A stretch of 64,000 nt of DNA, from positions 13,265-77,264 of IMG/VR virus record IMGVR_UViG_3300013125_000006; one strand, 5' to 3'. The stretch is from a virus. Positions 42,144 through 63,446 of this stretch are shown here, piece after piece. A model generated the notes under the pieces. That model saw nothing but the letters and a program-made list of their open reading frames with translations, did no database searches and was not told where the DNA came from. The position numbers were made by a program, and so were the translations under genes. How positions within the stretch are numbered: position 1 is the first letter of the stretch; each line of letters starts with the position of its first letter.

Positions 42144-44537
42144 TTACTGTAATATATGTACATTATTTTTAGTTCTTGACAAAGCTACATATTGTAGCTG
42201 TCTTTTTTCTACATCATTTCTACATTGAGAAATGCTCCTCATATCTATTAACACATTATTTATCGAAGAACCTTGCTATTCTTCATTATTAGAAATATTT
42301 TCATATTTCATGTGGACTATATCTTGTATTTGTTTTGAACATGAATTTAAGGTTTTAAATAAATATCCTTTGCTGTTTATTTTCCCTTTATTTTTAAGAG
42401 CTTTAGTAATATTTCCAGTTTGAGCTGCATTTTTTTTATGCAATTCAACTCCAAAAATTATGTCTAAAAATTCAGTAATTTCATAAGGATAATTTACAAC
42501 CTTAATAATATTATCATCTCCATCAAATATAACAGATTTTTCCATAATTGATTTGCCCGCCATGGGATTATTTTTTCCCATTCTAGTTTTACTTAGATTC
42601 TCAGCAAATCCTCTTGGTTTAGATTTGGAATTTTTCATTGCAATTAATTCTGAAATTCTATCTTTATCAATAGTATCTTGTAAAGAAAATGTATCTCCTC
42701 CATTACCTCCTAAAGTTTGATTAGTTAAATTATATAATTTAGAAAATTTCTCTATATATTCAATTTCTTTATTATATAATGATTCTCCTTGAATTATCTC
42801 TAATAATTCTATTTTAGCAATTTCTGGTCATAAATTTTCAAAGTACTTAAATCTATTGTTTAGATTTCTAAGTCCTTTTAAATACTCCCTAAAATGAGCA
42901 TAATGCATTTTAAGTCTGTCTTTAGGAGCAGATTCTGTCGCTCCTATATAAAAAATTTCATCATTAAGTGGATTTTTTAAGCAATAAATAAATCCTAAAT
43001 CAACTATTCTATTATTTTCCATATTTTATAAATTTTAATTAATACTATACAAATGTACTAAAAATTATTCATAAAACATAACAAATACCCAACCTTTTCC
43101 AAATAGCTTATTAAAAGCTAAATGTACTCCTTTGCAGGATAGTCTCTGATCCTTTTTCCTAATTTAGGAAACTTGGATGCGGATTGTCCAATCTTATTTA
43201 ATTTTTACTATACTCTAAATAATTACTTTAGACCCTATATTATGTTACCATATATAGTTAGTATAAATAAGCTCTTAGGATATTCCCGCAGTTAAATTGG
43301 TTTTACAAGAGCCAAGATTTCAACTCTTATGTATTGTTACTGCATATCCATAGTCAATAGATTTCTTTCTTATTAATCTGTTTTCATAATATAAATTATT
43401 AGGAGTAGTAAAACTACTCAGAATTCTATAATATTCTTTCCAAAGCATACTAGACTTTCTAGACCCACGCATTTTATAATTAATAGCCTCAAGTCTAAAT
43501 GCTTCTATAGTTAACCCAAGTCTTTTCGTATCATTGTAAGATAATTCATTAGATAATATATTAAAATCTAAATTAACATTATCAGTAGAATCAAAAACAG
43601 TTAGATTAAATCCTGGAAAAATTCCAACATTTGGGATATTAATATTAATCTTCTTTGGCTCTTCAATAATTATATAATCCATTCCATTCCAAAAATTACC
43701 ATAGCCAAATTCAAAATTATCATAACAAGTTAGAATTTCATTTTTTCCATACTCTTCATTATTAAAATAGTAATTATGAAGTTTTTTATTAAATAATTCA
43801 ACTCTGTCATTAGTATATGATAGTATTTTTGTCTCCATAATATCAGTATTTTTTGTGGCTTCGTCTATATATTTTATACCCTCCCTAAGAAATTCTATAG
43901 GATTATTTGTAACATAAATAGAACCAAATTCTGATTCTCTAGTTTCAAAATTATTAATATAATTTTCTCTACTTAACAAGAGTATTTCAGATAATGCAGA
44001 ATCTTCCTTTTGTCTAAAAATATGTGTTAAATAAAATATATCTTCAGTATCAAAAACCTTGGAAAAGTAATCAGAATTTACAGGTCTTAACTGTGCAATA
44101 TCTCCTATAAATAATATCTTAGAATTATGTTTAACACACCTATCAATTAACAAATCATATAAATAATCATTAACCATAGACGCCTCATCAACAATTACTA
44201 AAGAATTGGATGGAAATTCCTCAGATGTTTTATGGATAAGAAATTTTAAATCATTAAAATCTAAATCTATTAATTCAATATTAGGAGCAAGAGAAAGAAG
44301 TTTATGTATTGTCAAGGCAGTACTCTGGGTAAAATTTTGAAGCACATTTTTAGCTTTGTGTGTAGGAGCACATAAAACATAATTCTTTCTAATTTTATAT
44401 AAAATATCTATTAATTCTGTGGTTAAAAAGCTTTTACCAGTTCCGGCAAATCCAGAAATGGTAAAAGCTATTTTTGTTTTGGATTCTAAAAACTCTAGTA
44501 TTAATTCCAAAGCTTTTTTTTGATCATCACTTAACAT
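42144..44537 (-). CDS. Dda/RecD-like SF1B DNA helicase. Exons 44537-43323 and 42275-42144
   Basis: GFAGTGKS, APTHKA, IVDEASM and GDIAQL. Splicing restores YAVTIHKS|QGSS and YVALSR. Confidence 0.9.
42276..43022 (-). CDS. Intron-encoded GIY-YIG homing endonuclease with NUMOD3-like region; TGA=Trp at 42828
   Basis: GFIYCL...FYIG. ORFs 42828..43022 and 42276..42638 share a frame, and the linker is open after the TGA (ENL*PEIAKIE...TNQTLGGNGG). Confidence 0.82.
42276..43322 (-). mobile_element. Group I intron in the helicase gene (motif V)
   Basis: P1 aagagt|t...ggctctt. Core elements aactgcggg, aatccgcatccaag, agagactat and aagatatagtcc. Terminal G at 42276. Confidence 0.88.
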
Positions 44538-44538
44538 A

Positions 44539-47500
44539 TTATCCACATTTACTTGACCCACAATCTCTGCATATCATACAACCTCCTTCATAGATAATAT
44601 TATGACTTCCACAGTTATCACATACTGCTCCTGTTGCTTCAGTTCCATCAGGCACAAACAGCTTCAAAGATCTTATTAATCCAGCTTGAAAGCTATTCAT
44701 ACCTTTATTGGTAAAAGTTAGTCCATCAACTACTTTAATAACCTTTTCAGTCGGAGTACCTTCACGTAATAATGCAGAAACAAATCTTGCATAATTCCAA
44801 TATTCTTTATTGAACACACGATTCAATCCTCCAACAGTATTTACATAACCATACTTATCAAGATATGAGAAATCATATCTAGAACCTTCTGGTAATGAGA
44901 CTTTAATGATTTTACCACTTTCTATATAAGAAGGAATTGGTAATTCATCTAGGTCATTTATTCCTGTAAAGATTTCATAAGCCTTATCTCCATAAACTCC
45001 AACAAAAGAAATCCAGTTCTTTTTATCTTCATTCTTGAATCTTAAGACTTTGCAATCTAATTCATCAGGTCTATGGTCACTCATTTTTGGGGTTTCTTCT
45101 TTTACAAGAATACCACTCCTACTTCCATCACGATAGCAATCGTTCTTATACTTTCATATAAGTTTGGACTATACCATAATCCTAGTGTCTAGGATTCTTC
45201 CATTATAGTCTCTGAACGTCTTGTAATCCATTTATATTTATAACAAGATACGGGACATTCTCCAATATAATCTAATAATTTATTTAATGATTGATTATTA
45301 AAATAATATTTATAACTCATATTTCCTCGTTTATCACAATGAGTAGTAACACTATTATCAATATTTTCTTTTAGTCAATTTAAAATAAATGGATTTAAAT
45401 GTTTACAAGTAATTGCTCCTGCATTATTTAATGTTCCATTTTGTTTTTTAACTCCTCCATCGCCAATATACCACCACAATAAATTTATATTAGTTAATAC
45501 AATATTTGGTAGTATTTTTCTATTTTGAGATTGAGTATCCATTATTTCTTTTGGATAAAATAAATTATATAAATCTAAAAATTCGGGCCGAGTTTCTGTT
45601 TGAAAACTATAACAACCTGATTGTCTATTTATTTGGATATTTCCACACTTAATTCCATTTTCAGAAAATAAGTTCATTATATATTCAATAACTTCTTTAT
45701 GTTTATCAGTATATTGGAAATATGGATTAATTCCTTTTGGAACTAAACGTAATCCACCATCACCTAATAACATTCCTATTAATTGTTGTGTAAAAATTCC
45801 AGAAAAATTAATTTCATTCTTTTTATTAAATTTTTTCACGCTTTCTTTAACAGACCTTGGAGTAATACCTAACTTAATAAGTTCCCTTCGTATTGTCCCA
45901 ATATTTAATGAATATTCTTGGGAAAGTTTATTCATACTCTCTCCATTTTCATATTTTGTTTTAATTTCTTCTAATAGATTAGAATTTCGCTGCTGATTGT
46001 CCATTTTATAAAATTTAAAGGTTTAACATAATTGACAAAGATACTAATAATCTTTGAATAAAATATTAAAAAATTTAAATTTTAACTATTACTATAATTT
46101 TCCTACCTTCACACTTATCCTCTCAGATTATGTTGTGGTTTATAGTATTTTAGGAGATTCCAGCAATTTAGAAAGTTTTCATTTGTTTGTTACCAAACAA
46201 AGCCGCCTATCTTTCGACGGTTATTCCTTTACAATTCATTTCATGAGCAAATTGATAGATATCTGAAATTGTCTTTTTTTCAGTATCTTTTGCCACATTA
46301 ACAGTTGAGCTTATAGAATGTGTAGTATATTTTTGTAACATAGACTGCACCATGACTCTTTCTTCTGCACTAAGATCTTGTGCAGTATTATTATGCCATG
46401 GAGATTGTTTAATTAATTCATCCAATTCCTCTTTAGAGAATTCAGATAAATCTCCTGTATCTGGGTTAGATGTTATTAATCTATTTTCATTATACCAAAC
46501 TTTTAATTTTGGATGAACAACATTATAGTTTTTAAATCCAACTCCATTTTGATCAACAAAATCTGGAATTTCTCCAACATTACACTTCTTTCTTCTAATA
46601 TAATATAAACTAAATACAGGTTCACAACCACTAGTAGTTCCTGCCATTATACTTATAGTTCCAGTTGGAGCGCATATGTTTTGTGTAAGTTCTTTATCTT
46701 ACACTCTCCTCATTTCTAAGGAGTATCGGACTATATCATCATCCTGATAATTAGGATGTTGGATTTTCGTGCGGGAGATTATTGTTAGGCTCACTCCCGT
46801 AGTCTCTGAACCTTCTAAACTCTTTTAACCTAAGTTTAGGTTGGCTGCTGATTAACTTGAACAATTTTTTTACAAAAATCAATAAAAATTTAAAAATTAT
46901 TAAAATATTGAATTGTTTTTAGCTTTCCAGCAATTTATCCAATTTTTCAAAACCTATTACTAGGTTAAGCCACCAAAATTAATGGTACTCCATGAAATAT
47001 TTCTTCTTCCGAATATTCTCATTCTCTGCCATTCAGAAGGAAATTCCTGCATTAAGAAATTAAAAAATTTATTATTACCAATATAGTTAACTTCATCTAG
47101 TTCCTCATTATTATTGGAATATTCTTTATTTCCATCATAATCTGGAAAAGGAGAATTTAATATAGCTAAATCTATAGTAGCATCTAACTCTGCCTTCATT
47201 TTTAATTTCATAAGTTCCCCAATAATAGGAGAATTATAGTTAAGATTAAGAGCAGCCATCATATCTCCTAATGCTGTTATTCCAGTACCAGTTCTTCTAC
47301 CAGCTTTTCCAATTTCATTAACTTTTTCCCAAAATTCTTTTTCTTTATTTTGTGAAATAGAAATTATTCTATTTATAGCCTCAATCTCTAAATCAACTAA
47401 AATATCAGCTATAATCTGTGCTTCATAAAACACTCTATATGCTAAGTCCTTATTAATTTTTGCAAGAGGTGTAAAAGGAGATTGAACAAGGGAGTATAAA

Positions 47501-49467
47501 TTAGAAGCTATTAACCTACAACTATCATATGGAGATAAGGGTATTTCTCCGCATTGAGCAGTCATGACATGATTAAATAAGGCGGAATGATTTTTATTAT
47601 CAGTTACACAATAAACATCACTATTTCCAATTAATTCTATAGATTCTATTTGAATAAATCTACTTGCATCTCTATTTGGATTTGCAATTAAAGGTATTCT
47701 ATGAGTAATTAAACCTAATTCAATTAATTGTTTAACATAATAAGCAGAAATTACCAGTCTATAACAAGTTTGACAAGCATAAATTTCTCCTTTAATTTCT
47801 TTCTGCTGTTCTTCTTTAATAATACCAATAGTACTTCTAATACCCAAGGTTATTAACATAGATTTAACATTTGTTAAAAATTCTTTATTAATGGATGTTA
47901 TTGCTAAAGATCCACCAGAATCATTTAATGTTCCATCAGAATCTAATAAACCTGCCAACCATGCTAATCTAGTTTCTTTACAAACTTGAGTAGGAACAAA
48001 AGTCTTTAATGGAGACATTTGATTAACAATAATAGTTCTAATTTTATTATTAACTAAATCTAAAGTTCCATATTCTTTTACATTTAGATATGGGATTAAA
48101 TCAATTTTTTCTCCATATAAATCTATAAAATACCTAGTATCTCTTCCTTTTTCTATGGAAATAGTGCCATCTCCTGCAAAAAATCCTTGAGTATATGCAT
48201 TTTTATCTACACCATAAGAATCAGAAAATTCTATCAAGGGGTATACAAATTTAGACAATTTATCTCCAATTTTACAATCTTTTAATTGTTTTCTAATACC
48301 ATCTTTTAAAATAAATTCATGATAATTGGTACAAGTTAAATCAGTACCATCAGAAAAAACAACTTTAAAAACTTGCTCATTATCAGAAGTTTGAAAGGGG
48401 GTTACTAAAGTCCATTCTTTGCCATTCCAAATTTCAATTTCCTGATTAAGTAAAGTTACAATTGATTTAAATCCCTCTTTGGTTAATAAAGTTGTTTCTG
48501 GTGTAACACAAGGATTTGTAGATACAGCCCTAAATTTATCATAGACAGAAGCTGGATCATTTTCAATTATATTATCCCAGAATAATATTCCAGGTTCTGC
48601 GCTAGACCAAGCACAATGAATTATAGAATCCCACAATTCTTTAGCTCTAACTTTTTTAATATATATTATTGAGTTATCTGTATGATCCTCAATATAAGTA
48701 AGTTCATTATAATTTACATTTAAATATTCTTCACTAAATATAGACAGGTCTTTCTCACAAGGCCATCTTAATATATAGTCTCTGTCATTTTCTACTGCAT
48801 CCATAAAATCTTTAGAGATCCTAACAGATACATTAGCTCCTGTTACTTTAGTTAAATCCTGTTTAATTTTAATAAATTCAGGACTATCAGGATGTTTTAT
48901 ATCAATGCTCAACATTAATGCACCTCTTCTACCATCTTGACCAATAGTATTTGTTACCTGACTATAAAGTTCCATAAAAGGAACTACACCGCCTGTCGTT
49001 TTAGCAGCATTATTAACAAAAGCACCAGCAGGTCTAAGATTAGATAAATCAGTTCCATTGCCACCTCTTCTTTTATAAATTTCTGACATTTCTCTTGCAG
49101 TATCAAAAATTTGTTCTATGGAATCTCCTGTTTTAGTAACAAAACAATTTGATAGTGAAACAGGTTTTCCACTACCTATACCAGCTAGAACAGAACCTCC
49201 TGGAATGATATATTTAAAATCTTTAAATAAATCTAAGAAAGATTCATATCTATCTTTATTAGAAAGTCTTTCTCTACCATATTCACTTAATGATTTCCAG
49301 GCATAGTCAGTTAATTGTTCTGAATTTTTTTTAAAATTATCTAGCCTTGCAAATTCAGAAGCTATTCTCCCAAAGAATTCATCCAATGTCTCTTTATTAT
49401 GTTGATATTTAGATACCCAAGCATCATATGCTAAATCATCCCCTAAAAAATAATTATTATTTTCCAT
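44539..49467 (-). CDS. nrdJ: Class II (B12-dependent) ribonucleotide reductase with intein. Exons 49467-46982, 46672-46217 and 45136-44539
   Basis: SLSNCF, RRGALM and TNP|C(intein)|CGEIPL. Splicing restores STI|APTGT and GITV|YRDGSR. C-terminal Zn ribbon CDNCG...CRDCG. Confidence 0.9.
45137..46216 (-). mobile_element. Group I intron 2 in RNR
   Basis: P1 ccgt|c-gaaa-gataggcgg. Elements aattgctgg, ttcagagactat and atagtcc. Terminal G; frame restored on removal. Confidence 0.87.
45189..46004 (-). CDS. Intron-encoded LAGLIDADG homing endonuclease; TGA=Trp at 45375
   Basis: IGMLLGDG and WWYIGDG. Reading through the TGA gives FILN*LKEN...IGECPVSCYKYKW, ending at TAG 45189. Confidence 0.85.
46673..46981 (-). 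mobile_element. Group I intron 1 in RNR (309 nt, no endonuclease ORF)
   Basis: Elements aattgctgg, aatcagcagccaa, ttcagagactac and gatatagtcc. U at the 5' splice site, terminal G; removal restores TIAPTGT. Confidence 0.87.
47554..48510 (-). mobile_element. Intein (~319 aa) with LAGLIDADG domain at the RNR catalytic Cys
   Basis: Block A CVTPET, block B CTNYHEF, endonuclease motifs QGFFAGDG and LAGLLDSDG, blocks F/G DVYCVT...HVMTAQ|C. Confidence 0.92.
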
Positions 49468-49469
49468 TT

Positions 49470-49736
49470 TTATTCTTTCAGTATTTTATTTATTTCTTCC
49501 AACCAATTTGGGTTACTTTCAGACCATATTGCAGCATATTCTTCTAAATTTTCATTTTCAAATACTATTAATGGAACAGCTTTTGTACCATGCCTAGTCA
49601 TAATTGGAATCGCTTTCTTAAGATCTTTTAAATAAGTGATATTATATTTTTCAACATATATTTTTTCATCTATTTTATTTACAATATCTAATATAAAATC
49701 AACATCATCATCATAGATTACTTTAAGAATTTTCAT
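49470..49736 (-). CDS. Thioredoxin-fold-like small protein lacking CxxC
   Basis: 88 aa, immediately upstream of RNR; AVPLIVFEN resembles the thioredoxin cis-Pro loop; no Cys. Confidence 0.45.
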   Translation of the reverse strand: MKILKVIYDDDVDFILDIVNKIDEKIYVEKYNITYLKDLKKAIPIMTRHGTKAVPLIVFENENLEEYAAIWSESNPNWLEEINKILKE

Positions 49737-49759
49737 ATTAATTAATTACAATTATAGAT

Positions 49760-50098
49760 TTATTCATATACTGTAATTGTTCCCTGCTTTGGAAATACCT
49801 CAGTAATAAAGCCAGGATAATCAAATCCAGTGTATGGACTATAATTATATTTAGCTTCAAAATACTTATTATCACTGATCCTTTTAAAGACTGATAAATT
49901 AGTAGTATATCCCTTTTCTAAGTCAACATAAATTTTATCTGAAATAATTGCAAAATCATCTGAAAAGTGATTTTTTATTTGATTTCCATTTAAGTCAAAA
50001 TACTCATTATATATTTCTTCTGAGCAATTATCAAAATAATACTCATTGATTAATGGCCCTATTTCAAATTCAGAAACTTTGATACGCTCTCTTTCCAT
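49760..50098 (-). CDS. Hypothetical protein
   Basis: 112-aa ORF. Confidence 0.6.
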   Translation of the reverse strand: MERERIKVSEFEIGPLINEYYFDNCSEEIYNEYFDLNGNQIKNHFSDDFAIISDKIYVDLEKGYTTNLSVFKRISDNKYFEAKYNYSPYTGFDYPGFITEVFPKQGTITVYE

Positions 50099-50155
50099 TA
50101 TTATACTTTTAATAAACGATTAATAATCATAGTTTTTTCAAACTTTATCTTATTT

Positions 50156-50520
50156 TTAATAATTTTCTTCTTTTATCCATTTATATCCTTTATATATCTC
50201 ATATCTTCCGTTATAACAATTTCTAATCATAGTAATAGAATATCCTAATTCTTGATGTATTTCAACAGCACAACTCCATCTTTTAACTATATCTCCTTTT
50301 AAATCTAATTGTAAGATTGGAATAGATCTTGGGTTCTTTTCTAAAGTTTTTCCATACATGGAATTTCCCTCTCCTTTTCTAGATTCACTCATTTTCTTTC
50401 TAGTTTTCTCTGAAAATTTAATACCTACTATACCATCTCCTCCATCAGTTGTATTATATCCAAATTGAGAATTAGTTGAATCAAATTTTTCGATAAATTC
50501 AACTTCTTTATCACAAATTA
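50156..50520 (-). pseudogene. N-terminally truncated free-standing GIY-YIG endonuclease (NUMOD3/NUMOD1 remnant)
   Basis: Open frame CDKEVEFIEKFDSTNSQFGYNTTDGGDG...KKMSESRKGEGNSMYGK...YKGYKW. No catalytic N-terminus and no upstream ATG. Confidence 0.65.
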
Positions 50521-51348: not shown

Positions 51349-51358
51349 TATTTTTATT

Positions 51359-54300
51359 TCAATTTAAATCAAGCTTATATTCAAGAATATTTTCAATAGA
51401 AACAAGATCAAAATTAACTCCTGCCTTAGTATTGCCAAAATTCTTGTGTATCCATTCAGAAGAACCAAAAAATGAAGCAACTGACTTATATCTAAATTTA
51501 TGAGCATAAGTAGTAGCAGATTGATGTAAATCTCCTTTAATAAAATGGATATTATCACTTAATTTATGATAATCAATATATTGATTTATCTGATTTTCTG
51601 TTTTATCATTTATAGTTAAAGGCATATTTTTAAACATATCTTTTGCATCTTTCAGTTTTGTTATCATAAAGGCTTTTTATCCTCTATTTCTGGGAGTTTC
51701 CTCCTTAGTGCCATTCGCACAACATTCTGATTTATTTATCAGACAGCTCAGCATATATTTTCACCTTTTAAGGTGGGGAACACTCGTGGGTACATTATAT
51801 TTATTCAGTACCTATGCGTTACACTACTAATTAACCTTTCGTAATTTAATTAGTTAGCACGGTATTAGCAGTTAAGCCTTCACCGTTTTTGCTCCCTCCA
51901 CTTATTAAGTTTCCTTAACAAGGGGCAATTTGAAATAACAATATCTTTCAAATTTTCTATTTAAGTAAATTGTTACATTACTATACAAGTAATTCAAAAA
52001 TATCATAGATTTTTTAGAAGAAGTTGATATACATCGTGTTTCTTCATTTTGATTACTATGATTATGACTTATTTTTAAGTCATGAAGTTCTAATGGTAAG
52101 TATGATTTTAATTTTTTAATAAAATTGAATGTACTGAGTACTTGTATTGATGGTATTACATGCTCTTTATCAGCATAACTAATACAACCATCTCCATCGA
52201 AATAACCCCTAATAAAATGTCTAATTAAATCTTTAGATTTAAAAATACTTTCATCTGGAAATTCCAATGTAAGCGATTTTCTAGGAGTACATCCATAAGT
52301 ATTAAGAGTATTTCATAAATGTTTACTAGACAAATAAAATCTACATCTATATGAATCAGTTTTAATTTCTTTATCTGATTTAAAGAACTCTTTTAACTTT
52401 ACTAAATGTTCATAATCAGATAATTTTAAAGATACTTCTAATTGGTAATTATTTTTCTTTCCATCAATTAATGGAGCTGAATCAATATATCCATCTGCAT
52501 ATATAAATCCTAACCAATAAGCTTTTTCTTCTGTATCAATTTCATCAAATACTGAATCATCAAACGTTACTTTTTTTCTAACTTCTATAGAAATGTTGTG
52601 AAATTCTTTTAAGTACTTACTTAAAGTACCAATAGATAAATTATGTTTAATTTCTAATTCTTTTAAAGTCAATTTATTATTTATAAAATACTCATCAGCG
52701 GCATTTTTTAAATTAATAATTACCTCAGTCTTTCTATTAGATTTGGCATATAAATATCCATAATTTTTTAAAATCTCAACTATCTCTTCTTTTTCTTTTT
52801 TAAATCTTTTAGACAATTGTATAATTGTCAGCTTTTCTTGTAAAAATGTTTCTATTATTTCCATATTTTTATAGTATAATACTACAAAGATACAAAAAAT
52901 TTTTTAATTTACCAAATAAATAATGTTAATTATTGTTAAATTACCATGACTTAGAATAAAAGTATGTCCTTCACAATAAAAATGTTCAATAAATTTATCA
53001 AATATTCTTACCTCTATATTAGGATTCAAATATGATAAAGAAGCTTCTAATGCTTTATTGGCTACATATCCAAAATCTCCATCCTTTTTGTTCAGTATAG
53101 TTCGCTAATCTATACCCGTATTTACTACAGCTTATATTTGTTATTAATATAAGAACAGACTATATCATCATCTTCAGCATTACCTGTTAAGAGTAGGGCA
53201 TTTCCACTTGCTTAAGTGTACTCGCATTTCAGCGATAGTCGTTGAACCTTCAAAGATATTTCTATCTAAGCTTGGCTGCTGATTACCATTTCAGGCGTCC
53301 CAGCAATTAACCCTAATTCACTTACTGATTTCTCAGTAAGAGCACAATTAATATCTTCAAATTTTGTCTTTTTTCTATTTCCAAAAATAATAGCATCTTT
53401 GTACATATAATCATAGAGTTTCTTAATTTGTACTCTACCAGAATATTCCATTGTACAAATATGTCTTTTTTCTTTGGCTTTAGAAAAATTTAATTTGGTT
53501 TTCTTAAAATTTAATTTTTCCAAAAAATTTTCTTGGTTGCCAAATAATTTAACAAAATTTAACATATTTTTCATGATTTCCACCTTCAACAGCAATATAC
53601 TTAATATTACTATAATATCCAGACTCACTCAATTCTTTAAATAATTCAAGCATTACTCCTATAAAAGTTTTATACTGATCTTTATTATTTAGGTTTTGTG
53701 GAAGACTATGTCCTCCTCTAGTAGTTTTTCCATCATAACCATCCAAAGAATCTCCAACATTACAAATAATTATCTTTGTTGCTTTAGACAATAATGTTAA
53801 TTCAAATATTTTTTGTACAGTTCTTTGCATTCTAGAGTATACTTCATTAGAATCATAATTATTATCATAGATCGAGTAAGGCGATACATCGGCTCCGATA
53901 TGCATATCACTTAAATATACTATAAGAGAATATTCAGAAGTATGCTTAGGTTTTTTAATATCAAAAGAAAAATCAAATTTTATATCTTGCAAAAACTCTC
54001 TAAAATTTATTATTGACTCTCTTAAATCAATATTATCTTTTAAAGTTTCTTTATACTTTTGTTCATTAATACTTTCCTTTTGAAGCATATATCTTTTAAG
54101 GAAATTATTTTCCTTCATCTGAATAGTAAGCTGTACAAGTTCATCTTCTGTATGCTCCTCTACTACATGAGGTGCAAAAGGAACAGAGCCACTGTGAGTA
54201 AGATTAAAGGCTTTTAATACCTTTTTAAATTGCTGAAAAGTATATAAAGGAAAGTAAGTAGCAACAACCTTTTGAGAAAGTCCTGCTCCTTCATTTGAGT

Positions 54301-54481
54301 AAAGTCTAAACATTAAGTCAACTTCTTCTCTAGAGAAGCTTCCAACTAAAGGAGGTTTTTTTCTATTTAATATAGTAAAATTATATTTAGAAATTCTACC
54401 ATTCTCACGAATTGTTTCTACCTTTGACCTTTCCTCCATAGAATCATCTATGGTTCCATCATATATTTTGTTTTGGTCCAT
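51359..54481 (-). CDS. Calcineurin-like metallophosphoesterase/nuclease. Exons 54481-53573, 53083-52943 and 51652-51359
   Basis: SDMHIG and VGDSLDG. Splicing restores GGNH|DG and SHG|KD. GDLHQ lies in exon 3. Confidence 0.85.
51905..52864 (-). CDS. Intron-encoded LAGLIDADG homing endonuclease; TGA=Trp at 52313
   Basis: AYWLGFIYADG and FIRGYFDGDG lie in two same-frame ORFs joined by SKHL*NTLNTYGCTPRKSLTLEFP. Confidence 0.88.
52885..52916 (-). promoter_or_regulatory. Bacteroidetes primary-sigma promoter (TTTG-N20-TATCTTTG) upstream of the intron endonuclease
   Basis: -33 TTTG (52913-52916) and -7 TAnnTTTG (52885-52892) with 20-nt spacing, 20 nt upstream of the ATG. Confidence 0.65.
53084..53572 (-). 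mobile_element. Group I intron 1 in the phosphoesterase gene, with a decayed LAGLIDADG C-terminal remnant
   Basis: Elements aattgctggg, aatcagcagccaag, ttcaacgactatc and gatatagtc. Removal restores GNHD. Remnant IKKLYDYMYKDAIIFGNRKKTKF. Confidence 0.82.
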
Positions 54482-55407: not shown

Positions 55408-55441
55408 GTATATTTGCACGAAAAAAATTGCATAAAGAATG

Positions 55442-56386
55442 TTAATTTATGTTAAAACCAACTTTTTTATTAGTTCTAACAAAATAATTTTTTTTGCCTT
55501 TTGGAGTTTTTATTTTAGAAATGGATTCCTCTATAGAATATCCAAATATATAAGCGCAAATATATATTTCCTTTAAATCAGCTATTGAACATCCTGATGA
55601 ATTAGAAACTAAATACTCTAAATCTGACTCAGGAACTAGCTTGTTAATAAAATACTCTTTTCTTACATCTTCACTTGGAAGAGGTATTTCTAATCTAATA
55701 TCGAACCTACTGGGTCTCAATAATGTATCAGGAATCTCTTCAATATTATTAGAAGTAGCTATAACTATGTGGTGATTAATTTTTGATTTTCCATCTAGGA
55801 AGTCCAATAAATCAGCCTCTAAGTCTAAATATTTATCAATATCTTCTAATACAGTAACTAATAAAGTATCTGGTTGTATTTTTCTAAAAGCCCCAGTAAT
55901 AAACTCTATGTATTCCTCAAGATTACGAATGCCATTAACTGTAAATACTACTCCACCCTTATTAATTACCAACTCTGAAATCTGAGTTATTATTGAGGTC
56001 TTTCCAGTTCCAGGATATCCCTCCAAGAAAATTCCCCTTTTGTGAACAAGGTTTTTTTCTTTATATAAATTAGATTTATCCCAAAAAGATTCAATCTCCA
56101 TTACTATATCATTTACGATAGATCCTCTGAATTTAAATAATTCATCAGAAGTAATAGAAGTTTTCTGACAGAAATATCCATCAGTCTTATTAAAACCAAC
56201 TGAATATATCGCTGGTTCTAACTTGTTTAAAATAGATAAATTAGTGGAGGGTTTAAAAAATTCTCCATCTTTTACCCAAAGAGATATATCTGATTCAGAG
56301 TATTCTTCTATAGCTCGAATTTCTGGTTCAAAAGCATTAGCAATGTATACTTCGGTATTATTTCCTACTTCTAAAATGGTATCCAT
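55442..56386 (-). CDS. AAA+ ATPase
   Basis: GYPGTGKT, VLEDID, ATSN and RPSRFD. Confidence 0.88.
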   Translation of the reverse strand: MDTILEVGNNTEVYIANAFEPEIRAIEEYSESDISLWVKDGEFFKPSTNLSILNKLEPAIYSVGFNKTDGYFCQKTSITSDELFKFRGSIVNDIVMEIESFWDKSNLYKEKNLVHKRGIFLEGYPGTGKTSIITQISELVINKGGVVFTVNGIRNLEEYIEFITGAFRKIQPDTLLVTVLEDIDKYLDLEADLLDFLDGKSKINHHIVIATSNNIEEIPDTLLRPSRFDIRLEIPLPSEDVRKEYFINKLVPESDLEYLVSNSSGCSIADLKEIYICAYIFGYSIEESISKIKTPKGKKNYFVRTNKKVGFNIN

Positions 56387-56757
56387 GTATTTAAGAGTTC
56401 TTTTATTTTGTTTATAATTTCTTGGGAAGTCTTTAATCCACAGCTATCTATAATCTCTATTCCATAAGATAAATCTTTGCTTAAAATTGCAACAGATTCC
56501 AAAAACTTATAGAAGCTTGAATCATCCTTCTTTTGATTTGTTATTTTTAGAAGAATATCTAAGTGAGTAATTTTATTATCCTTCAATTTCATTTTCTGGT
56601 ATACTAAAGCCAATAAAGATAAAAGTATCAATCTATCATTTAAGTTTTTAGTTCCTAAATATCCGGTAGAAAAGCAAGAAGAGTATATTTCTTCTCTTTC
56701 TTCAAATGGAAGACTAAGTATAATATTTTTTAAATTGAATAATTCTGCTTTTTCCAT
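56371..56757 (-). CDS. Hypothetical protein
   Basis: 128-aa ORF overlapping its neighbours. Confidence 0.6.
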   Translation of the reverse strand: MEKAELFNLKNIILSLPFEEREEIYSSCFSTGYLGTKNLNDRLILLSLLALVYQKMKLKDNKITHLDILLKITNQKKDDSSFYKFLESVAILSKDLSYGIEIIDSCGLKTSQEIINKIKELLNTWIPF

Positions 56758-57761
56758 ATTAAGAAAGAGGTTAATAATTTATTAAATTCACCTAATCCTG
56801 CTTTTATATATTTACCATTTACTGGATATATTTTAGAAGAAAATTCAGGCATAGTCTCAACTACAAGCATATTTACTTTAGGTTTATACTGTATGTCTTT
56901 TAATGCTAAGGCAGCTTGTAAAAGCCATATATATATTCCAACTTGTCTATAATAATGATATTTTTGAAATGAGCCATTATACCAAATAGATTCTTCATCC
57001 TTTTTTACATAATTTCCCATAAAATACTTAACAGGTTTACTAGAAGATTTTAAATCGTTTAATGTCACAGTTTTATTAAAATGATCAATTAAAAAATTAT
57101 CAAATTTAGCTTTAAAGTCTACTAAAAATATTTCTCCTTCTATAGTAACCTCTAAAGTACATAATATTGCATATTCATTAAAAGACTCTATTATACCAAA
57201 TGTATCTTCTGAAGGATTAACTAATTCAAAAATCTCAGAAGAAACTAGACTAGACATACATTTTAAATATTTCTCTTTGTTTGTATCAGATAGAAATAAA
57301 GTTTTTTTGCTTTCATGTTCCTCAAATTTTAATAATTTAAGATAGAAAGAAATTCCTTCTTTAATTGCTTTTTTAATCCTTTTTTCAGAAAAACTACTTG
57401 CATAATAATTAGCAGATAAAGAAGCTTTTTTAATAGAATCTAATATAGAAAATCCCAATCTTCTGAATTTAAGAACATCAAATAAAAATAATCCAAATTT
57501 ACCAGACGGTTTATTAAAATCTGATATTAAATATGAATCAGGTTGTAATATCATTGAATGAATAGCTGTACCTAATTCAAATGAATCAGAATATTCAGTA
57601 TTGAAGGAGGAGTTAAAATTACTGAAATCTCCTCCTTCGTCTGAATTTATTAAAGATAATCTAGAATTAGACATATAATCAGTATAGTTATTAAAATACT
57701 CTTCATCAGTTAATTTTAACAATACAATTGACTCTGGAATTATTCTAATTTTTGACTGCAT
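56730..57761 (-). CDS. PD-(D/E)xK exonuclease (RecE/ExoVIII-like)
   Basis: SNSRL, LGTAIH, KAKFD...NDLKSS and YYRQVGIY. Confidence 0.8.
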   Translation of the reverse strand: MQSKIRIIPESIVLLKLTDEEYFNNYTDYMSNSRLSLINSDEGGDFSNFNSSFNTEYSDSFELGTAIHSMILQPDSYLISDFNKPSGKFGLFLFDVLKFRRLGFSILDSIKKASLSANYYASSFSEKRIKKAIKEGISFYLKLLKFEEHESKKTLFLSDTNKEKYLKCMSSLVSSEIFELVNPSEDTFGIIESFNEYAILCTLEVTIEGEIFLVDFKAKFDNFLIDHFNKTVTLNDLKSSSKPVKYFMGNYVKKDEESIWYNGSFQKYHYYRQVGIYIWLLQAALALKDIQYKPKVNMLVVETMPEFSSKIYPVNGKYIKAGLGEFNKLLTSFLIWKKQNYSI

Positions 57762-58242
57762 TATATTTTTTAATTATTGTTTCAAACTTCAAATCTCTAA
57801 TTCTATATTTTGTTTTTAAATGCTTATTTTGAGGAGTATCCATTAATAAACAAAAAATTCCATTATCCCAACATTCTATAAAAGTCTCTATTTTATCATC
57901 TATAAATATATCACATTTTAAAGACTTTAAAATATTTATTTTACTTTCTCCCCATTTAACATGCCTTACTTTACTTCTTCCAGGAAAATTTCTTAATTTC
58001 AGAGTATCTTTTGTCCATTTTAAAGGGATTCCTCTGGCAGATACATATCCAGAAGGAGTAAAATCAGGCATATGCTTTACTTTCAAAGATAGCCAAAAAC
58101 TTTTGTTTTTACGTAACTCCTCTAAATGATCTTTTATATCTTCATATGGAATCCAACTAGTAGGCATGGGTAATTTATATTTTTCAATATAAGCCTCATG
58201 CCATTTCAATACTACATCATCAACATCTAAATAAATGTTCAT
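57745..58242 (-). CDS. HAD-family 5'(3')-deoxyribonucleotidase-like protein
   Basis: YLDVDDV, SAR and FIDDK. Confidence 0.78.
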   Translation of the reverse strand: MNIYLDVDDVVLKWHEAYIEKYKLPMPTSWIPYEDIKDHLEELRKNKSFWLSLKVKHMPDFTPSGYVSARGIPLKWTKDTLKLRNFPGRSKVRHVKWGESKINILKSLKCDIFIDDKIETFIECWDNGIFCLLMDTPQNKHLKTKYRIRDLKFETIIKKYNAVKN

Positions 58243-58254
58243 CTTAATTGTTTT

Positions 58255-58707
58255 TTATGTATAATATAATTTTAATAATTCATAGAAAAATTTCTTTGGT
58301 ATGATTGCATATTCTCCTAATGAAGTAATATTTACATTGCCTTCTTTCTTTTCCTGCACATTCCAAACAATGCATAAAGGTTTATCACTTTTTCCTACTT
58401 CTGCATTAATCTTTTTAACACTTGGAGTAGTTTGAGTTTTCTTTGTTTGAAAATAACAAGGAAGTACATTATCTGGATCTGCTATATCAATTTTCATATC
58501 ATCTAATTTCTTAGATTCACTTCTAGCAGTACATAAATTTTCATTACCTGTTAATTCTTTTAATTCATTAACTATTTGCCTTTCATATGCTGAACCTTTT
58601 GTCTTAGAATATGCACCAGATTTTTTCTTTTTTGGTTGAGGTTTTTCCTCAAGTCAGTTAGTACTTTCTAACTCTTCTAAAGAATTTGCTTTCTCTTTTC
58701 TAGCCAT
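58255..58707 (-). CDS. Holliday junction resolvase-like PD-(D/E)xK nuclease (~150 aa); TGA at codon 18 (58654)
   Basis: The ATG at 58707 overlaps the primase end. MARKEK...ESTN*LEEKP...SKTKGSAYERQIVNEL...DDMKIDI...FQTK shows an Hjc-like KGxxxER helix and a D...QxK active site. Confidence 0.72.
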
Positions 58708-59681
58708 TCGTTTACTAAATTTAATGTTTTTAAAATGCCATATTTTTTTACATAATCTGTAAAATCTTTTACTTTTGGCATAAGTAAAATTTTAATATCT
58801 GGAAATTGTGCTTTTATTTTTTTAGCAGCTTTTATACCAGCTAAATCCCTATCATAGAGTAAATAGATATCTAAAAATTTCTCCTTCAACTTTAAATACT
58901 GAGATTCAGTTAAAAAAATATTTTCAGAATTGGGAGCAATTGAAGTTATACCAAATTCATATAAAGACATTACATCTTTTAATGATTTAGTTACTACAAT
59001 ATAATCCCCACTCTTGGGTAATTGCTTAGCTCCTTGTATTAAAGTAGAGCTCCAATTACTTAGAAATCTATATTTAATTTTAGTGGGCATATATAATCTC
59101 CATAATTCTTCACTATGACTATTCTCTCCTCCATAATAGCCATATATAGGACTACTATTAGAAGAACTGCCAAAATAAACTCCATTGAGAAATACAGATT
59201 TTATAGAATATACTTTAAATTTTTTTAGGGTAGATAAACTTATACCAAAAGATTGCCACCAAGTTAATTCCTTACTAGAAAATTCTTTTGTTTCAACTGA
59301 TATTATAGCACTAGAAGTTTCTTCTAAAACACTACCAGTATAGGGAATTAATGGAGGATTTTTTTCAATTTTTTCAAAATTTACATATCCAAAATCATTA
59401 GCAATAATTCTTAAAGCTTTATAATAACTTACATTATAAATATACATTACAGCTCCTATAAAATCAAAAGTTGGGCCTGCAAAATCTTTATATTTTAAAA
59501 GCCCAGCTTTGTTTTTATAGAAAGCACAAGTAGGTTTTTTATCAACTCTTATGATAGGGGGACTGCAAAACAATCCTTTTTTAACAGGTATTCCTAAATA
59601 ATGCTCAAAATAAGTTTCTTGAGTATTTTTAGAAAGTAAAAATTCTTTTGTTATTTTGGGAGCCTGCTCTAAACTAAACAC
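58677..59681 (-). CDS. DNA primase (TOPRIM)
   Basis: RVDKKPTC, YKDFA, VTKSLKDVM and LYDRDLAGIKAA; located in the replication cluster with DnaB. Confidence 0.8.
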   Translation of the reverse strand: MFSLEQAPKITKEFLLSKNTQETYFEHYLGIPVKKGLFCSPPIIRVDKKPTCAFYKNKAGLLKYKDFAGPTFDFIGAVMYIYNVSYYKALRIIANDFGYVNFEKIEKNPPLIPYTGSVLEETSSAIISVETKEFSSKELTWWQSFGISLSTLKKFKVYSIKSVFLNGVYFGSSSNSSPIYGYYGGENSHSEELWRLYMPTKIKYRFLSNWSSTLIQGAKQLPKSGDYIVVTKSLKDVMSLYEFGITSIAPNSENIFLTESQYLKLKEKFLDIYLLYDRDLAGIKAAKKIKAQFPDIKILLMPKVKDFTDYVKKYGILKTLNLVNEWLEKRKQIL

Positions 59682-59695
59682 CCATTATATAATTT

Positions 59696-60394
59696 TTATA
59701 GTCCAGATACGTCAAAGTTTAAATCTAGATTTGGACCATCCTCAACAGAAGGAGTAAATGTCTCTACTCTTGCGGGAGCAGCATTTGATTCATTATTTAT
59801 GTTTTGTAATTCATAGGTAGAAAATGCTACTTTATCTCCTATAAAATTATTTTTTACATAAGGTAGTCCCTCTCTAGTTAAACCAGCAAAGAATCCAGGA
59901 AATGTGGCTTCACCAGTTTTCTTATTTTTTAATAACTTGATTTTTGTGGTAGTTCCTTTTCCAGAATCAAGTATTTTTGTAACTAATTTTCTTAGTTCAT
60001 CCCAATTACTAGCACCCAAATTTCTTTCTTTTGAATCTATCTGCTTTCCAACAGTAGGAGCAATTGAGTCTATAGCATGTTTAAATAATAACATCATGCT
60101 TTCTACATTTGAAGGCTGTGGTATTTTCTCAATTTTTCCATCTTTATTTTTTATTTCTGACTCTCTTCTATTAAAATCTTCAGGACGAGGTTCCCAAACA
60201 GTATGTTCATAAACTCCATCTTCATTAGAAAATTTTAAAATTAGTTGCTTGTAAAGTGCAGTAGGATCTTTTACTCCTGCTATGTCTTTTAATTCACAGC
60301 CATCGAACTTTACAGTATAAATATTATTTCCATCTAATTTAGGTTTTGTAGTACTTTGTGATGCGTTAGCTGTTGCGCTAAATGAAAAATCCAT
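59696..60394 (-). CDS. Putative single-stranded DNA-binding protein
   Basis: Beta-rich N-terminus, acidic/hydrophobic tail (EDGPNLDLNFDVSGL), and position between the AAA_24 ATPase and primase. Function is inferred. Confidence 0.5.
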   Translation of the reverse strand: MDFSFSATANASQSTTKPKLDGNNIYTVKFDGCELKDIAGVKDPTALYKQLILKFSNEDGVYEHTVWEPRPEDFNRRESEIKNKDGKIEKIPQPSNVESMMLLFKHAIDSIAPTVGKQIDSKERNLGASNWDELRKLVTKILDSGKGTTTKIKLLKNKKTGEATFPGFFAGLTREGLPYVKNNFIGDKVAFSTYELQNINNESNAAPARVETFTPSVEDGPNLDLNFDVSGL

Positions 60395-60399
60395 AAATA

Positions 60400-60978
60400 T
60401 TAATTATTTAAGGTAAATGTTAACTCGTCTATCTCTGCTATTTCTTCATTATCTATTAATAAAATAGGTTCAACTTTATCTGCTTTTTCAATTGCCTCAG
60501 CAATAGTTTTAGTAGATGTGGTTCCACTAGTTGGAACAAGTTTCCATATATCTTCTTTGTATTCTTCTATTGTAAACTCTGTGCCTAATTCAGATAAAAC
60601 TAAATTTTGCTTACCTTTATATCCTATAGAAAAAGCTTTAGTAACTTTATTACCACTTCCTTCTTCGCTAAAAGAAACATCTTTTCCAATTATAGGAATA
60701 AAAGTTTTGCTATTTTTACTTATAGGTTCCCATTTAATTACAATCCTATCCTCATATTCAATATTCATTACAGCTACAGCCTTATTATTAAATAGAAGTT
60801 TATTAGGTTCTAATGTAATTATGGGAGTGCTAGCAAGTTCTTCAACAACCTCAGATTTTTTTCTAGTAGTTCTTTTAGCTTTTTCAACACCATCTACTGA
60901 ACATTGAACATTAGATACAGATTCATTTTCTGGGTCAAAATCGAATGTAACAATAACTTTCTTAATTATTTTATCCAT
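60400..60978 (-). CDS. Hypothetical protein
   Basis: Probable start MDKII at 60978, overlapping the upstream stop. Confidence 0.6.
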   Translation of the reverse strand: MDKIIKKVIVTFDFDPENESVSNVQCSVDGVEKAKRTTRKKSEVVEELASTPIITLEPNKLLFNNKAVAVMNIEYEDRIVIKWEPISKNSKTFIPIIGKDVSFSEEGSGNKVTKAFSIGYKGKQNLVLSELGTEFTIEEYKEDIWKLVPTSGTTSTKTIAEAIEKADKVEPILLIDNEEIAEIDELTFTLNN

Positions 60979-63446
60979 TATATTCGTTAATTTTATCAAT
61001 TACTAATTGTAAATCATTATCTATATAAAGATCATCAAAACAGCCAAATGGAGTTTTTGCAGTATTAGAACCATCAGAGTTAGTAATAAATTTATATTCA
61101 ATAACCCCATCATCATTTGTTCTCTTTGTAGTAAAAAGTACATATGTAAACAATCCTTCAACTGTTATCATATTATCTATCATTTTTCCAAGAGTTTTAA
61201 TTTTATAAGAAGGGTTAAGAGTATCTCCAACATTTTCTGAATGTGCAAGAATGAATACCTTCAAATCCTGTCTTGCATTCATCGATTCTTTTAATACTGA
61301 ATAAAAATGCTGTGCCATTTGGGTAAATTTCTCATCAATTGTGTTATTCTGCGCATGACTGCACAACTCTTTATGTTTCCATAAAGTTCAGACTATATCT
61401 TAATTTTTATTTCTTTTTATCCCTTTTGGAATAGTTAAAGCCTCAATAGGTTCCCATTTATGTTTAGATACTCTATTATTAACTAATTCAAATTCCATAT
61501 TATAAAATTCGCACCATTGTTTCAAAGTCTTAGACTCTTCTCCAATAGTAATAAGTTTTTTAAATGGATCTTTTTGAATTGCTTCTTCAAAAGATAAACC
61601 ACTTCTGTAAATTCTTTGATAAAGAGTTGTATATTTTATACCAAATTCTTTAGCCCAATCTTTTAATACCATTGTTTTACCATTATAAGTAACAATATCA
61701 TTAAAATCTTCTCTGTTTTTACTTTGTGTAGTTCTGTCTGCCCAAATACAATTCTCTTTAGAATAATCTTTAAGATTATCAATTCTTTCTAAAGTAAATC
61801 CTTCTGGACAATTACCTAAATCTGAATAAAATGTTTCAAAAGAATTCATCCATTCAGGACAAACCTGAATATTATTTTCTTTATACTTTCCTTTTGTTGC
61901 CGATGGAGAATAACATCTAGATTTCATAGATTTCCATTGTTTATATTCCGGCATTTTACTTTTTCCTTTAATTTTTTCCATGTGCTATTTTGTTAAATTA
62001 TAATTTACAAAGATAGCGAATAATTTTTATAAAAATCCTAACCATTTCCAAAAAAGTTATTATTAACTTTAATGTACTCTCCTTCATGGAGATAGTCGTT
62101 GAACCTTTTTCCAAAAGTTAATTTGGAAACTTGGATGCGGATTGACCAATTCTTTTTGATTTTACCATACCTTTCATCATTACTGAAAGCCATTATGTAT
62201 ATTACTATCATAATTTGGTTAAAAAGACTCTAAGGTTATTCCCGCAGTTAGATTAGTTTGGGCATGTTTATTCACCCTTTTTCAGTGGCACGATCCATCG
62301 CTTCAAACATTTATATTCAACAGTGTTCGTTAATCACTGCCCGCTAATTTTACTTAGCTACTATATGTTACCATATAGATTAGACTATATCATCATCTTT
62401 ATTAAGATGTCTGGCGCTTCCAATCACTTGATTGTACTTCCTTTCGGAATAGTCGTTGCACCTTCCTCGTTTAAGAGGCTTGGCTCAGGATTGTCCATTA
62501 TTGGAGTTTCCCTGAATTCACCAGATTTGCTAACAGTTATCACTAACTGTTGGGCCTTTGAAATTTTGATCATAAGATCAGTAAGAACCTTTATATAATT
62601 TACCACTTGCTAAAGCTCTATTAATTCCTTTATCAGCACCACCAGGTTTTATTCCAAACTCTGAAACCCAAGCTTCAATATTTGGTTTAATTCCCTCATA
62701 AGTATTAATAATCTCTAAAGAACTATTAAAGCGATATATAGTTTTATATCGTTTCTTCAAATTATCAAGATTTGCATAATATTTTTTATTAGCTTCTGAT
62801 AATTTTCGTTTGGTTTCTTCAGTTGGAATATGAGTTATAACATCCTGCTCTTTATTATAAACAGGTTTTAGTAAATTAATATAATGTTGTTCTTTGAAGT
62901 ATTGTTCATCTATGTTACATAGTTCTATAATCACCAATTCAAAACATTTCTCTCCATATTTATTATATGAATTTTGTAAATGTTCATTCTTGTGAACTCC
63001 TTTACGAAGTTCTCTTCTATGCTTATAAAATCTCTGTTGAATGTTTTTAGAGCTGCCTATATAAAAATTTGCATTATTACAAATAATTTTATAGACTCCA
63101 CAAACATTTTTATATCCTAACATAGATTCACTAAATTTCATTTCAATCTTTTTTTAGCCATTAAATATTGACTATCATCAATTATAATTTGTTTTATATG
63201 AGGCATTTTAACACTTACATACTTTATAATCTGATTAATTTTATCAATACTACTTGTATTATATAAATTTCCAACAAACTCTTTATTTTCATTTATAGTA
63301 AGTTGAATATAATTCTTTTTAAAGTTTTTTATAGGTAAATTTTTTCCTGCAACATTTATAATAAATGTTTCTTTTGGGTTTAAGTTCCTTAAACTAGTGG
63401 ATTTACCAGAACCACTTTCACCAACAATTGCACCTAATTCGGCCAT
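60971..63446 (-). CDS. Sak4-like/AAA_24 P-loop ATPase. Exons 63446-63156, 62307-62274 and 61335-60971
   Basis: GESGSGKST. Splicing gives IDDSQYLMA|FEAMDRATEKG-Y|EKFTQ. Also LAHSE and TAKTP. Confidence 0.87.
61336..62273 (-). mobile_element. Group I intron 2 in the AAA_24 ATPase gene
   Basis: P1 gggU|gaataaacat-gccc. Elements aactgcggg, aatccgcatccaag, ttcaacgactatc and aagatatagtc. Terminal G. Confidence 0.87.
61400..61981 (-). CDS. Intron-encoded HNH-type (beta-beta-alpha-Me) homing endonuclease
   Basis: WKSMKSRC, VCPEW, TLERIDNLKDYSKENCIWA and QSKNR, followed by repeated TLKQW-type DNA-binding modules. Confidence 0.82.
   Translation of the reverse strand: MEKIKGKSKMPEYKQWKSMKSRCYSPSATKGKYKENNIQVCPEWMNSFETFYSDLGNCPEGFTLERIDNLKDYSKENCIWADRTTQSKNREDFNDIVTYNGKTMVLKDWAKEFGIKYTTLYQRIYRSGLSFEEAIQKDPFKKLITIGEESKTLKQWCEFYNMEFELVNNRVSKHKWEPIEALTIPKGIKRNKN
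62308..63155 (-). mobile_element. Group I intron 1 in the AAA_24 ATPase gene
   Basis: Exon ends in tggcU. The distal IGS tcaaaggcc pairs with both exons (ggct and tttga). Core elements caacgactat and gatatagtc. Terminal G at 62308. Confidence 0.85.
62530..63141 (-). CDS. Intron-encoded GIY-YIG homing endonuclease; TGA=Trp at 62578
   Basis: GVYKI...FYIGSS...R...H. Reading through the TGA completes a NUMOD1-like YKGSY*SY, ending at TAG 62530. Confidence 0.82.

Follow-up and report, generated by a model that had tools for sequence, protein, structure and literature searches.

The 64,000-nucleotide stretch of DNA analyzed here (the window) comprises bases 13265–77264 of IMG/VR record IMGVR_UViG_3300013125_000006, a 77-kb phage fragment that is estimated to be 43% complete. 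The reading that we favor, with a probability of about 0.7, is that it belongs to a TGA-to-Trp recoded crAss-like phage in which the early genes are readable by the host, while the homing endonuclease genes (HEGs) and a gene for a putative Hjc-like junction resolvase are written in the late code and would give whole proteins only with suppression of TGA. Genes needed before the code switch, that is, the replication and nucleotide metabolism genes of the minus strand, would be written to read correctly in the standard code of the host, and TGA as a sense codon would be confined to genes whose products are not needed early. Termination at TGA by the host release factor 2 (RF2) would leave these proteins short of a working enzyme: the resolvase would be cut to 17 residues, as the initial annotation of this DNA correctly worked out, and three HEGs would have a cut catalytic or second LAGLIDADG domain; the fourth, the GIY-YIG HEG at 62530, would lose only a 15-residue tail. 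Full-length HEG products and resolvase would appear only once an opal-suppressor tRNA(UCA) of the phage is active, and the gene for this tRNA presumably resides in the missing 57% of the genome.

Results

TGA on the early strand

The window has a GC content of ~27% and is divided into two blocks. Positions 1–30288 of the plus strand carry giant open reading frames (ORFs) that are continuous only with TGA read as sense: ten consecutive same-frame pieces called in genetic code 11 merge into one ORF of 3070 amino acids when TGA is taken as tryptophan. The minus strand carries, from 30334 to 64000, genes for primase, ribonucleotide reductase (RNR), ThyX, DNA and RNA ligases, and dUTPase, as well as Dda-like helicase, Sak4-like, RecE-like, and Mre11-like genes. 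Judging by the sequence of the primase and its neighboring gene, the phage is a member of the crAss-like group, as a tblastn search gave matches to crAss-like phages annotated ‘DNA primase’ and ‘Holliday junction resolvase’. The giant late proteins had no family matches in a PHROGs search that could serve to align their TGAs with tryptophan, and such an alignment is shown directly for the TGAs of the HEGs.

With TGA read as tryptophan, five verified minus-strand ORFs contain an internal TGA, one each (Table 1). These are four HEGs and the Hjc-like resolvase gene, the same five that the initial annotation had singled out, and family matches extend across each of the five codons. The other 38 minus-strand ORFs (the core) contain 89 TGG codons and no in-frame TGA, which bears out the earlier statement that the replication and metabolic genes of this strand are free of internal TGA. 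The TGA:TGG ratio is 4:11 in the six minus-strand HEGs, 1:1 in the resolvase, and 35:46 in the plus-strand late ORFs; the HEGs differ from the core with a Fisher p of 3e-4 when codons are counted and of 1e-4 when genes are counted. Two small unverified minus-strand ORFs that also contain TGA (33498–33695 and 53180–53347) lack homologs and are unlikely to be genes.

The opposite use of TGA is found on the same strand. Termination at TGA had been noticed at 31992 and 38492, both of which we confirm, and three further early ORFs end in the same way (at 43320, 51359, and 63138), bringing the number to five. Since TGA is a stop in these ORFs and a sense codon elsewhere, it has two meanings in one genome. 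Each of the five terminal TGAs is followed by a TAA or TAG 5–16 codons downstream, and these triplets have the look of backup stops, which would keep the C-terminal extension short when TGA comes to be decoded. Many early genes of related genomes, notably of the one designated G005, have a TGA 1–4 codons ahead of TAA or TAG. We also considered a host that natively uses genetic code 4 or 25 and ruled it out, as the early genes avoid TGA, use it as a stop, and have backup stops; the relatives’ own tRNA(UCA) contradicts such a host as well.

Tryptophan at the TGA columns

The three mid-gene TGAs of the HEGs could be compared with full-length homologs at 50–80% identity. The TGA column of the HEG at 51905 is occupied by Trp in 119 of 119 homologs. 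At the TGA column of the HEG at 42276, 42 full-length homologs (51–66% identity) have Trp in 17 cases, Phe in 18, and Tyr in 6, with Trp in the closest, and at that of the HEG at 45189, Trp is present in the three closest full-length homologs (70–81% identity) and Gln in distant ones. The TGA at 62578 had been described as removing only a short tail. It does precede no more than 15 residues, but this tail is kept in the related genomes G001 and G005, the column being TGA in the former and TGG in the latter, and the codon is sense there too. The HEG family envelopes are near full length, and no TAA or TAG truncations and no frameshifts were seen in them. On the strength of these alignments, we take the HEG TGAs of the window to be Trp sense codons in intact genes; the failure to align with tryptophan that the initial annotation had allowed for did not materialize.

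HEGs of related genomes

Primase-based and resolvase-based scans of IMG/VR gave ~50 related loci, and four larger contigs were taken whole. Codons were counted in five genomes (G000, G001, G002, G004, and G005), and only TGAs lying within cross-genome alignments or HEG profile envelopes were admitted. The HEGs have 19 TGA:26 TGG, the other conserved early genes 8:450 (several of the eight being exon-end artefacts, and any TGA-free HEG family outside the profiles being counted among the other genes), and the late genes 394:186. The HEGs differ from the other early genes (p = 3e-16), a comparison akin to the Fisher test of nuclease and non-nuclease early genes that the initial annotation had suggested for recoded relatives, and they also differ from late genes (p = 9e-4). 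The TGA enrichment of HEGs is thus strong and general in the clade. The claim that in-frame TGA occurs only in nucleases describes the window but not its relatives, in which a helicase, a tail lysozyme, and PNK carry it; the rule is ‘genes not needed early’ and not ‘nucleases’.

Two of the relatives carry a gene for tRNA-Trp(UCA) on their late strand. The one in G002 (60526–60599, minus strand) lies immediately upstream of the first late gene with a TGA, and the one in G004 (12525–12597, minus strand) is situated in a group of TGA-free genes ahead of the TGA-rich genes. The distant relatives G009 and G010 use the standard code and have no TGA in the resolvase, which is without a leader, or in the giant late ORFs.

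The putative Hjc-like resolvase and its leader TGA

The fifth TGA-bearing gene starts within the end of the primase gene. Its AlphaFold2 model (pLDDT 77.5) consists of a disordered segment (residues 1–21, pLDDT below 50) followed by a compact domain, the best structural matches of which are Hje (Z 5.2, root mean square deviation 4.1, 91 aligned residues) and Hjc (Z 5.1); many other PD-(D/E)XK nucleases have Z values of 4–4.5. A Foldseek search of the PDB with this model gave no match at E ≤ 0.001, and the PDDEXK_15 profile reaches 21 of the 27 bits that its cut-off demands. Residues E42, D74, Q87, and K89 are invariant among homologs. Going by the model, the protein is a putative Hjc-like junction resolvase.

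The TGA is codon 18 and falls in the disordered Lys/Glu-rich leader. There is no ATG, GTG, TTG, CTG, ATT, or ATA in the window gene between this TGA and the invariant catalytic helix KGSAYERQIV, and full-length resolvase consequently requires TGA decoding. An alternative start downstream of the TGA, canonical or near-cognate, is ruled out by the same absence.

The leader TGA is conserved to an unusual degree. It is present in 19 of 31 distinct homologs, in 16 nucleotide contexts, and not one of the 31 has TGG at this site. The remaining 12 have TTA, AGT, AAT, ACT, or GAA at this column or have no leader. The conserved internal Trp of the same protein, for comparison, is encoded by TGG in 23 cases and by TGA in 6. 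As a control, we examined the invariant Lys, Glu, and Gln columns of the 19 TGA-bearing genes, which share the tree and the base composition with the leader site: all 17 display both A and G in the third position, while the third base of the leader codon is A in 19 of 19, and only one of the 50 invariant columns keeps a single codon in these genes. With every control site variable and the leader site constant, selection seems to act against a change of TGA to TGG. Counts on a tree gave ~6–7 changes at the leader and three TGG/TGA flips at the internal Trp; the tree of so short a protein is poorly supported, and for this reason we rely on the silent-site control instead. An internal TGA occurs in 4 of the 10 conserved-internal-Trp genes that lack the leader TGA and in 2 of the 19 that have it, a difference that is no more than suggestive of an internal TGA making up for the lost one. 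A hidden leader containing TAG was looked for in the resolvase homologs that lack the TGA leader, and none was found.

Taken together, these comparisons suggest that what is kept at the leader codon seems to be its stop character rather than tryptophan. The leader TGA could serve as a lock, or as a throttle, by which a nuclease that cuts junctions is kept from the intermediates of early replication and recombination. In its full form, this proposal, which might be called an ‘opal lock’ and which we hold at only narrowly less than even odds, states that the TGA is selected and position specific, that the early primase transcript would yield no resolvase before the suppressor tRNA is available, and that branched replication intermediates would be protected in this way until packaging.

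Among GenBank phages, only two distant resolvase homologs were found, MT835492 and MT836281. In both human gut loci (L103, MT835492.1 29408–32716; L104, MT836281.1 439–3741), the frame upstream of the resolvase domain is open for ~50–70 codons. The two upstream stretches resemble each other (‘KNG...IEExSE...’), and that of L104 has no canonical start.

Genes and introns of the early strand

The features discussed here are collected in Table 1. The initial annotation had called the four TGA-bearing endonucleases intron endonucleases. They are HEGs, but among them, a group I intron confirmed by Rfam adjoins only the GIY-YIG gene in the Sak4-like gene. For the RNR and exonuclease HEGs, what is shown is only a split host gene around them: pieces of RNR at 46207–46647 and 44539–45084 flank the HEG at 45189, and the HEG at 51905 is inside an Mre11/SbcD-like exonuclease gene (53549–54481 and 51359–51667), the counterpart of which is uninterrupted in G004. 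The HEG at 42276 sits between the Dda-like helicase gene and orf108 and is apparently free-standing. Its membership in the family is weaker than that of the others, as it has no Pfam hit itself and is assigned through phrog_314 and homologs that have PF01541.

The TGA of the HEG at 51905 falls between its two LAGLIDADG domains (LAGLIDADG_1, residues 117–187, and LAGLIDADG_3, residues 213–235; PF14528, 27.7 bits with a cut-off of 22.5). A 209-residue protein called on another contig (P0168) is 90% identical to the product of the HEG at 45189, which implies the same TGA there. The TGA at 62578 is located 4–6 nucleotides inside the 5′ boundary of the Rfam group I intron match. Ribosomes would halt at the ribozyme boundary before suppression and would enter the core by 48 nucleotides afterwards.

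Table 1 Features of the window
Feature	Coordinates	Strand	Supporting match or composition	In-frame TGA (codon/ORF length) and remarks
Late block	1..30288	+	Code-4 ORFs (3070, 1999, and 1534 aa), all three assembled from same-frame code-11 pieces	
Tail lysozyme	30334-31062	-	PF18013, 121 bits	TGA-free in the window; last gene of the ‘early’ strand
TGA stop of dNMP kinase gene	31992..31994	-	Family matches stop before the TGA	Backup stop further on
LAGLIDADG HEG splitting the RNA ligase (Rnl) gene	36817..37686	-	phrog_4645, E 2e-45; LAGLIDADG_3	No TGA
GIY-YIG-like HEG	42276..43022	-	phrog_314, E 5e-8, residues 10-225	42828-42830 (65/248)
LAGLIDADG_2 HEG	45189..46004	-	PF03161, 58.8 bits (cut-off 25), residues 75-243	45375-45377 (210/271)
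RNR large-subunit piece with in-frame intein	46960..49467	-	Ribonuc_red_lgC; LAGLIDADG_3, residues 499-581; Hom_end; weak Intein_splicing hits	
Double-motif LAGLIDADG HEG	51905..52864	-	phrog_4645, E 2e-50, residues 9-308	52313-52315 (184/319)
Hjc-like PD-(D/E)XK resolvase-like gene	58255..58707	-		58654-58656 (18/150); ATG at 58707 overlaps primase end by 31 nucleotides
DNA primase	58677..59681	-	phrog_12622, E 1e-39	TGA-free, 5 TGG; directly upstream of, and overlapping, the resolvase-like gene
HNH HEG between Sak4 pieces	61400..61981	-	phrog_3377, E 6e-53	TGA-free, 6 TGG; counter-example
Group I intron core	62361..62584	-	RF00028, 109.6 bits, E 1e-27	Directly 3′ of, and overlapping, the end of the 62530 ORF
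GIY-YIG HEG in Sak4-like gene	62530..63141	-	PF01541, 43.1 bits (cut-off 22.6); phrog_314; residues 11-194	62578-62580 (188/203)

RNR is encoded in no fewer than three pieces and has a separate LAGLIDADG_2 HEG besides; a group I intron (46706–46991) follows the piece with the intein. A third strong group I intron match is found at 63687–63923 (minus strand), near the edge of the window. Weak matches at 61369–61514 and 62093–62246 (minus strand, E 2e-4 and 2e-3) surround the HNH gene, and the Sak4 region may contain two or three introns.

Evidence against the proposed reading and alternative explanations

A number of observations weigh against the reading of the HEGs and the resolvase as late-code genes in early operons. 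No tRNA gene, suppressor tRNA included, was found in the 77-kb fragment (43% of the genome), and the literature yielded no study of suppression timing for any crAss-like phage. A Zeta-group genome has TGA inside PolB and its intron ORFs (Yutin et al., PMC7886860). Real exceptions outside the HEGs occur in the relatives, namely Trp14 of the helicase (G001), the tail lysozyme (G001 and G002), and PNK (G005). The lysozyme has no TGA in the window, and strand is consequently an imperfect proxy for expression class. The PNK gene of G005 (3962–4381, minus strand) has two in-frame TGAs at columns that are K/V and R/E, not Trp, in the window and in G001; they either are genuine nonsense mutations or represent an unusual use of the codon.

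Nuclease activity, which the initial annotation made the discriminator, fails as such, and its own caveat about the TGA-free endonucleases at 36817 and 61400 and the RecE-like nuclease was well placed. Both the RecE-like and the Mre11-like nuclease of the window lack TGA. The LAGLIDADG HEG of the Rnl gene is TGA-free but uninformative, since it has no Trp codon at all. The RNR intein has a LAGLIDADG endonuclease domain (approximately residues 355–632) in an ORF with 12 TGG and 0 TGA, which is to be expected of an endonuclease translated together with the early RNR protein. The HNH HEG is the most telling case, with 0 TGA and 6 TGG in every one of three genomes (the window; G001, 33933–34514; G004, 59906–60490) and a chance of 0.58^18, or ~5e-5, of having no TGA under the HEG-wide TGA share. 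It differs in this respect from every other Trp-containing HEG family in the window and may be early-expressed, domesticated, or recently arrived.

The best-surviving alternative is that the TGAs are a by-product and gate nothing: HEGs, and perhaps the resolvase, would act late anyway, and AT-biased mutation would turn TGG into TGA unopposed. This is a serious possibility, albeit one that we would sooner bet against. It is in keeping with the occasional TGA in non-nuclease early-strand genes of relatives and with orthologous GIY-YIG genes, in which the same Trp columns alternate between TGA and TGG. Furthermore, the TGA share of HEGs in the five genomes, which is 42% and may be overestimated because two of the HEG profiles were seeded from ORFs spotted through their TGAs, is not higher than that of the late genes but below it (68%, p = 9e-4), as drift predicts. 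In the reading that we favor, too, the HEG TGAs are explained most simply as the footprint of late, suppressor-dependent expression, with TGG drifting to TGA where early translation is not required. Drift under late expression explains the HEG data as well as an adaptive gate does, and a benefit of gating is hypothetical for these genes.

The resolvase is where the two explanations part. Mutational drift is compatible with the recoded relatives G002 and G006, which manage with a TGA-free resolvase, G002 making the protein without a leader, and the empirical p-value for the constancy of the leader TGA is only ~0.04–0.06. The two GenBank homologs, which look standard-code, encode the corresponding leader Trp, which is part of an ‘EW[LA]D’ motif, by TGG, and the leader Trp may on this account be ancestral. 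What a by-product does not explain is the constancy of the leader TGA in 19 of 19 genes, while variation is seen at 17 of 17 comparable A/G silent sites and the internal Trp is encoded mostly by TGG. When the leader TGA is lost, moreover, it is replaced by non-Trp codons and never by TGG, so that neither tryptophan nor neutrality accounts for the site. By these sequence comparisons, the leader TGA appears to be the one element with evidence of selection and the only place where an adaptive gate is separable from tolerance. The late-expression gate proposed in the initial annotation is upheld insofar as full-length proteins need TGA decoding and relatives carry tRNA(UCA), whereas a late onset of suppression and a benefit from the delay are inferred; its advantage over mere tolerance can be argued at the resolvase leader only.

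Less well supported is the idea that the HEGs were acquired in finished form from TGA-rich contexts such as recoded phages or code-4 hosts, in which case their TGAs would mark origin and not expression. HEGs are mobile. Their presence and positions do differ among G000–G005, and those in the Zeta phages Lera and ct1yV3 differ as well, although the two are near-identical; the HNH gene, having no TGA, could have come in recently from a standard-code source. However, most homologs have an ordinary Trp at the TGA columns and are called full length, which suggests that TGG changed to TGA within the recoded lineage, and a HEG required early would shed its TGA quickly, whatever its source. As importation also cannot account for the non-mobile resolvase, we consider it unlikely.

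A further possibility concerns the resolvase alone. The leader TGA could be a genuine stop, that of a short upstream peptide serving to uncouple the ribosomes that arrive from the primase gene, with the resolvase started downstream in a non-canonical manner and without suppression. The leader ATG does overlap the primase end, the leader is disordered and poorly conserved, and G002 makes its protein without any leader. This explanation is nevertheless very improbable, given that the stretch from the TGA to the catalytic helix contains no canonical or near-cognate start codon in the window, that the frame is open across the TGA in every relative, and that TGA-less lineages keep the frame with a sense codon (TTA).

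Finally, that the TGAs are nonsense mutations in decaying genes, with the HEGs as pseudogenes of the homing cycle and the resolvase as a dead gene, is hardly tenable: HEGs commonly decay, one TGA each resembles a first hit, and the PNK TGAs of G005 (aligned with R/E and K/V) could be true nonsense, but pseudogene decay is ruled out for the window by TGAs that sit on Trp or aromatic columns, conserved downstream protein sequence, full-length family matches unbroken by TAA, TAG, or frameshifts, and a resolvase TGA kept over 16 nucleotide contexts ahead of an intact domain.

Discussion

The proposed late-code reading of HEGs and resolvase has a practical side, as gene callers that use the standard code miss or truncate the five TGA-bearing early-strand genes. 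More broadly, it is a further, well-controlled example for the view that phages schedule their translation by changing code in mid-infection, here with late-code genes placed inside early operons.

For HEGs, the idea is already published and is here applied to a new clade. In the Agate phages, which are TGA-recoded, a group I intron of an early gene encodes an endonuclease that uses TGA in preference to TGG (p = 1.3e-3), and the in-frame stops should block production of the endonuclease until late; resolvases and other nucleases are not mentioned (Borges et al., bioRxiv 10.1101/2021.08.26.457843; Nat Microbiol 2022). The two systems share (i) a HEG lodged in a standard-code early gene, the GIY-YIG ORF in the Sak4-like gene of the window abutting a group I intron core, and (ii) a preference for TGA in HEGs over neighboring early genes. 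Unlike the Agate case, the present one belongs to a crAss-like clade and involves several HEG families (two LAGLIDADG and two GIY-YIG genes), one of them free-standing, and one family that is consistently TGA-free. Our HEG data temper the published inference, in that passive drift fits equally well and one HEG family escapes the pattern.

In crAss-like phages, TGA is known to stand for Trp mostly in late genes; introns, inteins, and HEGs are many, and the clade has tRNA(UCA) (Yutin et al. 2021, PMC7886860; Lera, PMC12386605). Neither of these papers analyzes which genes of the early block carry TGA, as was done here. Our literature search for recoding in connection with Holliday junction resolvases found no paper, nor did we find one that describes a conserved leader TGA.

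The putative resolvase itself resembles the archaeal Hjc and Hje, which are its best structural matches over 91–92 residues. E42, D74, and Q87-x-K89 occur in the expected order, and Crassvirales annotations give the neighbor of the primase gene as a resolvase. It differs from Hjc in having Gln in the third motif in place of the Hjc Glu and in a 35-residue disordered leader that is absent from Hjc, and the similarity in sequence is marginal (E 0.3–0.5).

A functional analogy, and no more than that, can be drawn to phage T4, in which genes carried on early transcripts are likewise read late; the T4 device consists of RNA structure and late promoters, whereas here it would be a reassigned stop. 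T4 gene 49, the gene of endonuclease VII, was reportedly found by Barth et al. in 1988 to be controlled by late translation from an early transcript too. According to the review by Edgell, Gibb and Belfort (2010, PMC2988022), the reference list of which includes Barth 1988 on gene 49, the T4 intron HEGs I-TevI and I-TevII as well as I-TevIII are present on early transcripts and are translated late owing to hairpins that sequester the ribosome binding site, other late genes carried on early transcripts are similarly delayed, and the restricted translation of I-TevI protects intron splicing. By analogy, the location of the TGA at 62578 at an intron boundary would fit this splicing-protection rationale, yet the codon is not conserved, being TGG in G005. 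Compared with these mobile elements, a single conserved stop in the dispensable leader of a non-mobile gene is the more useful case for asking whether code switching times protein production.

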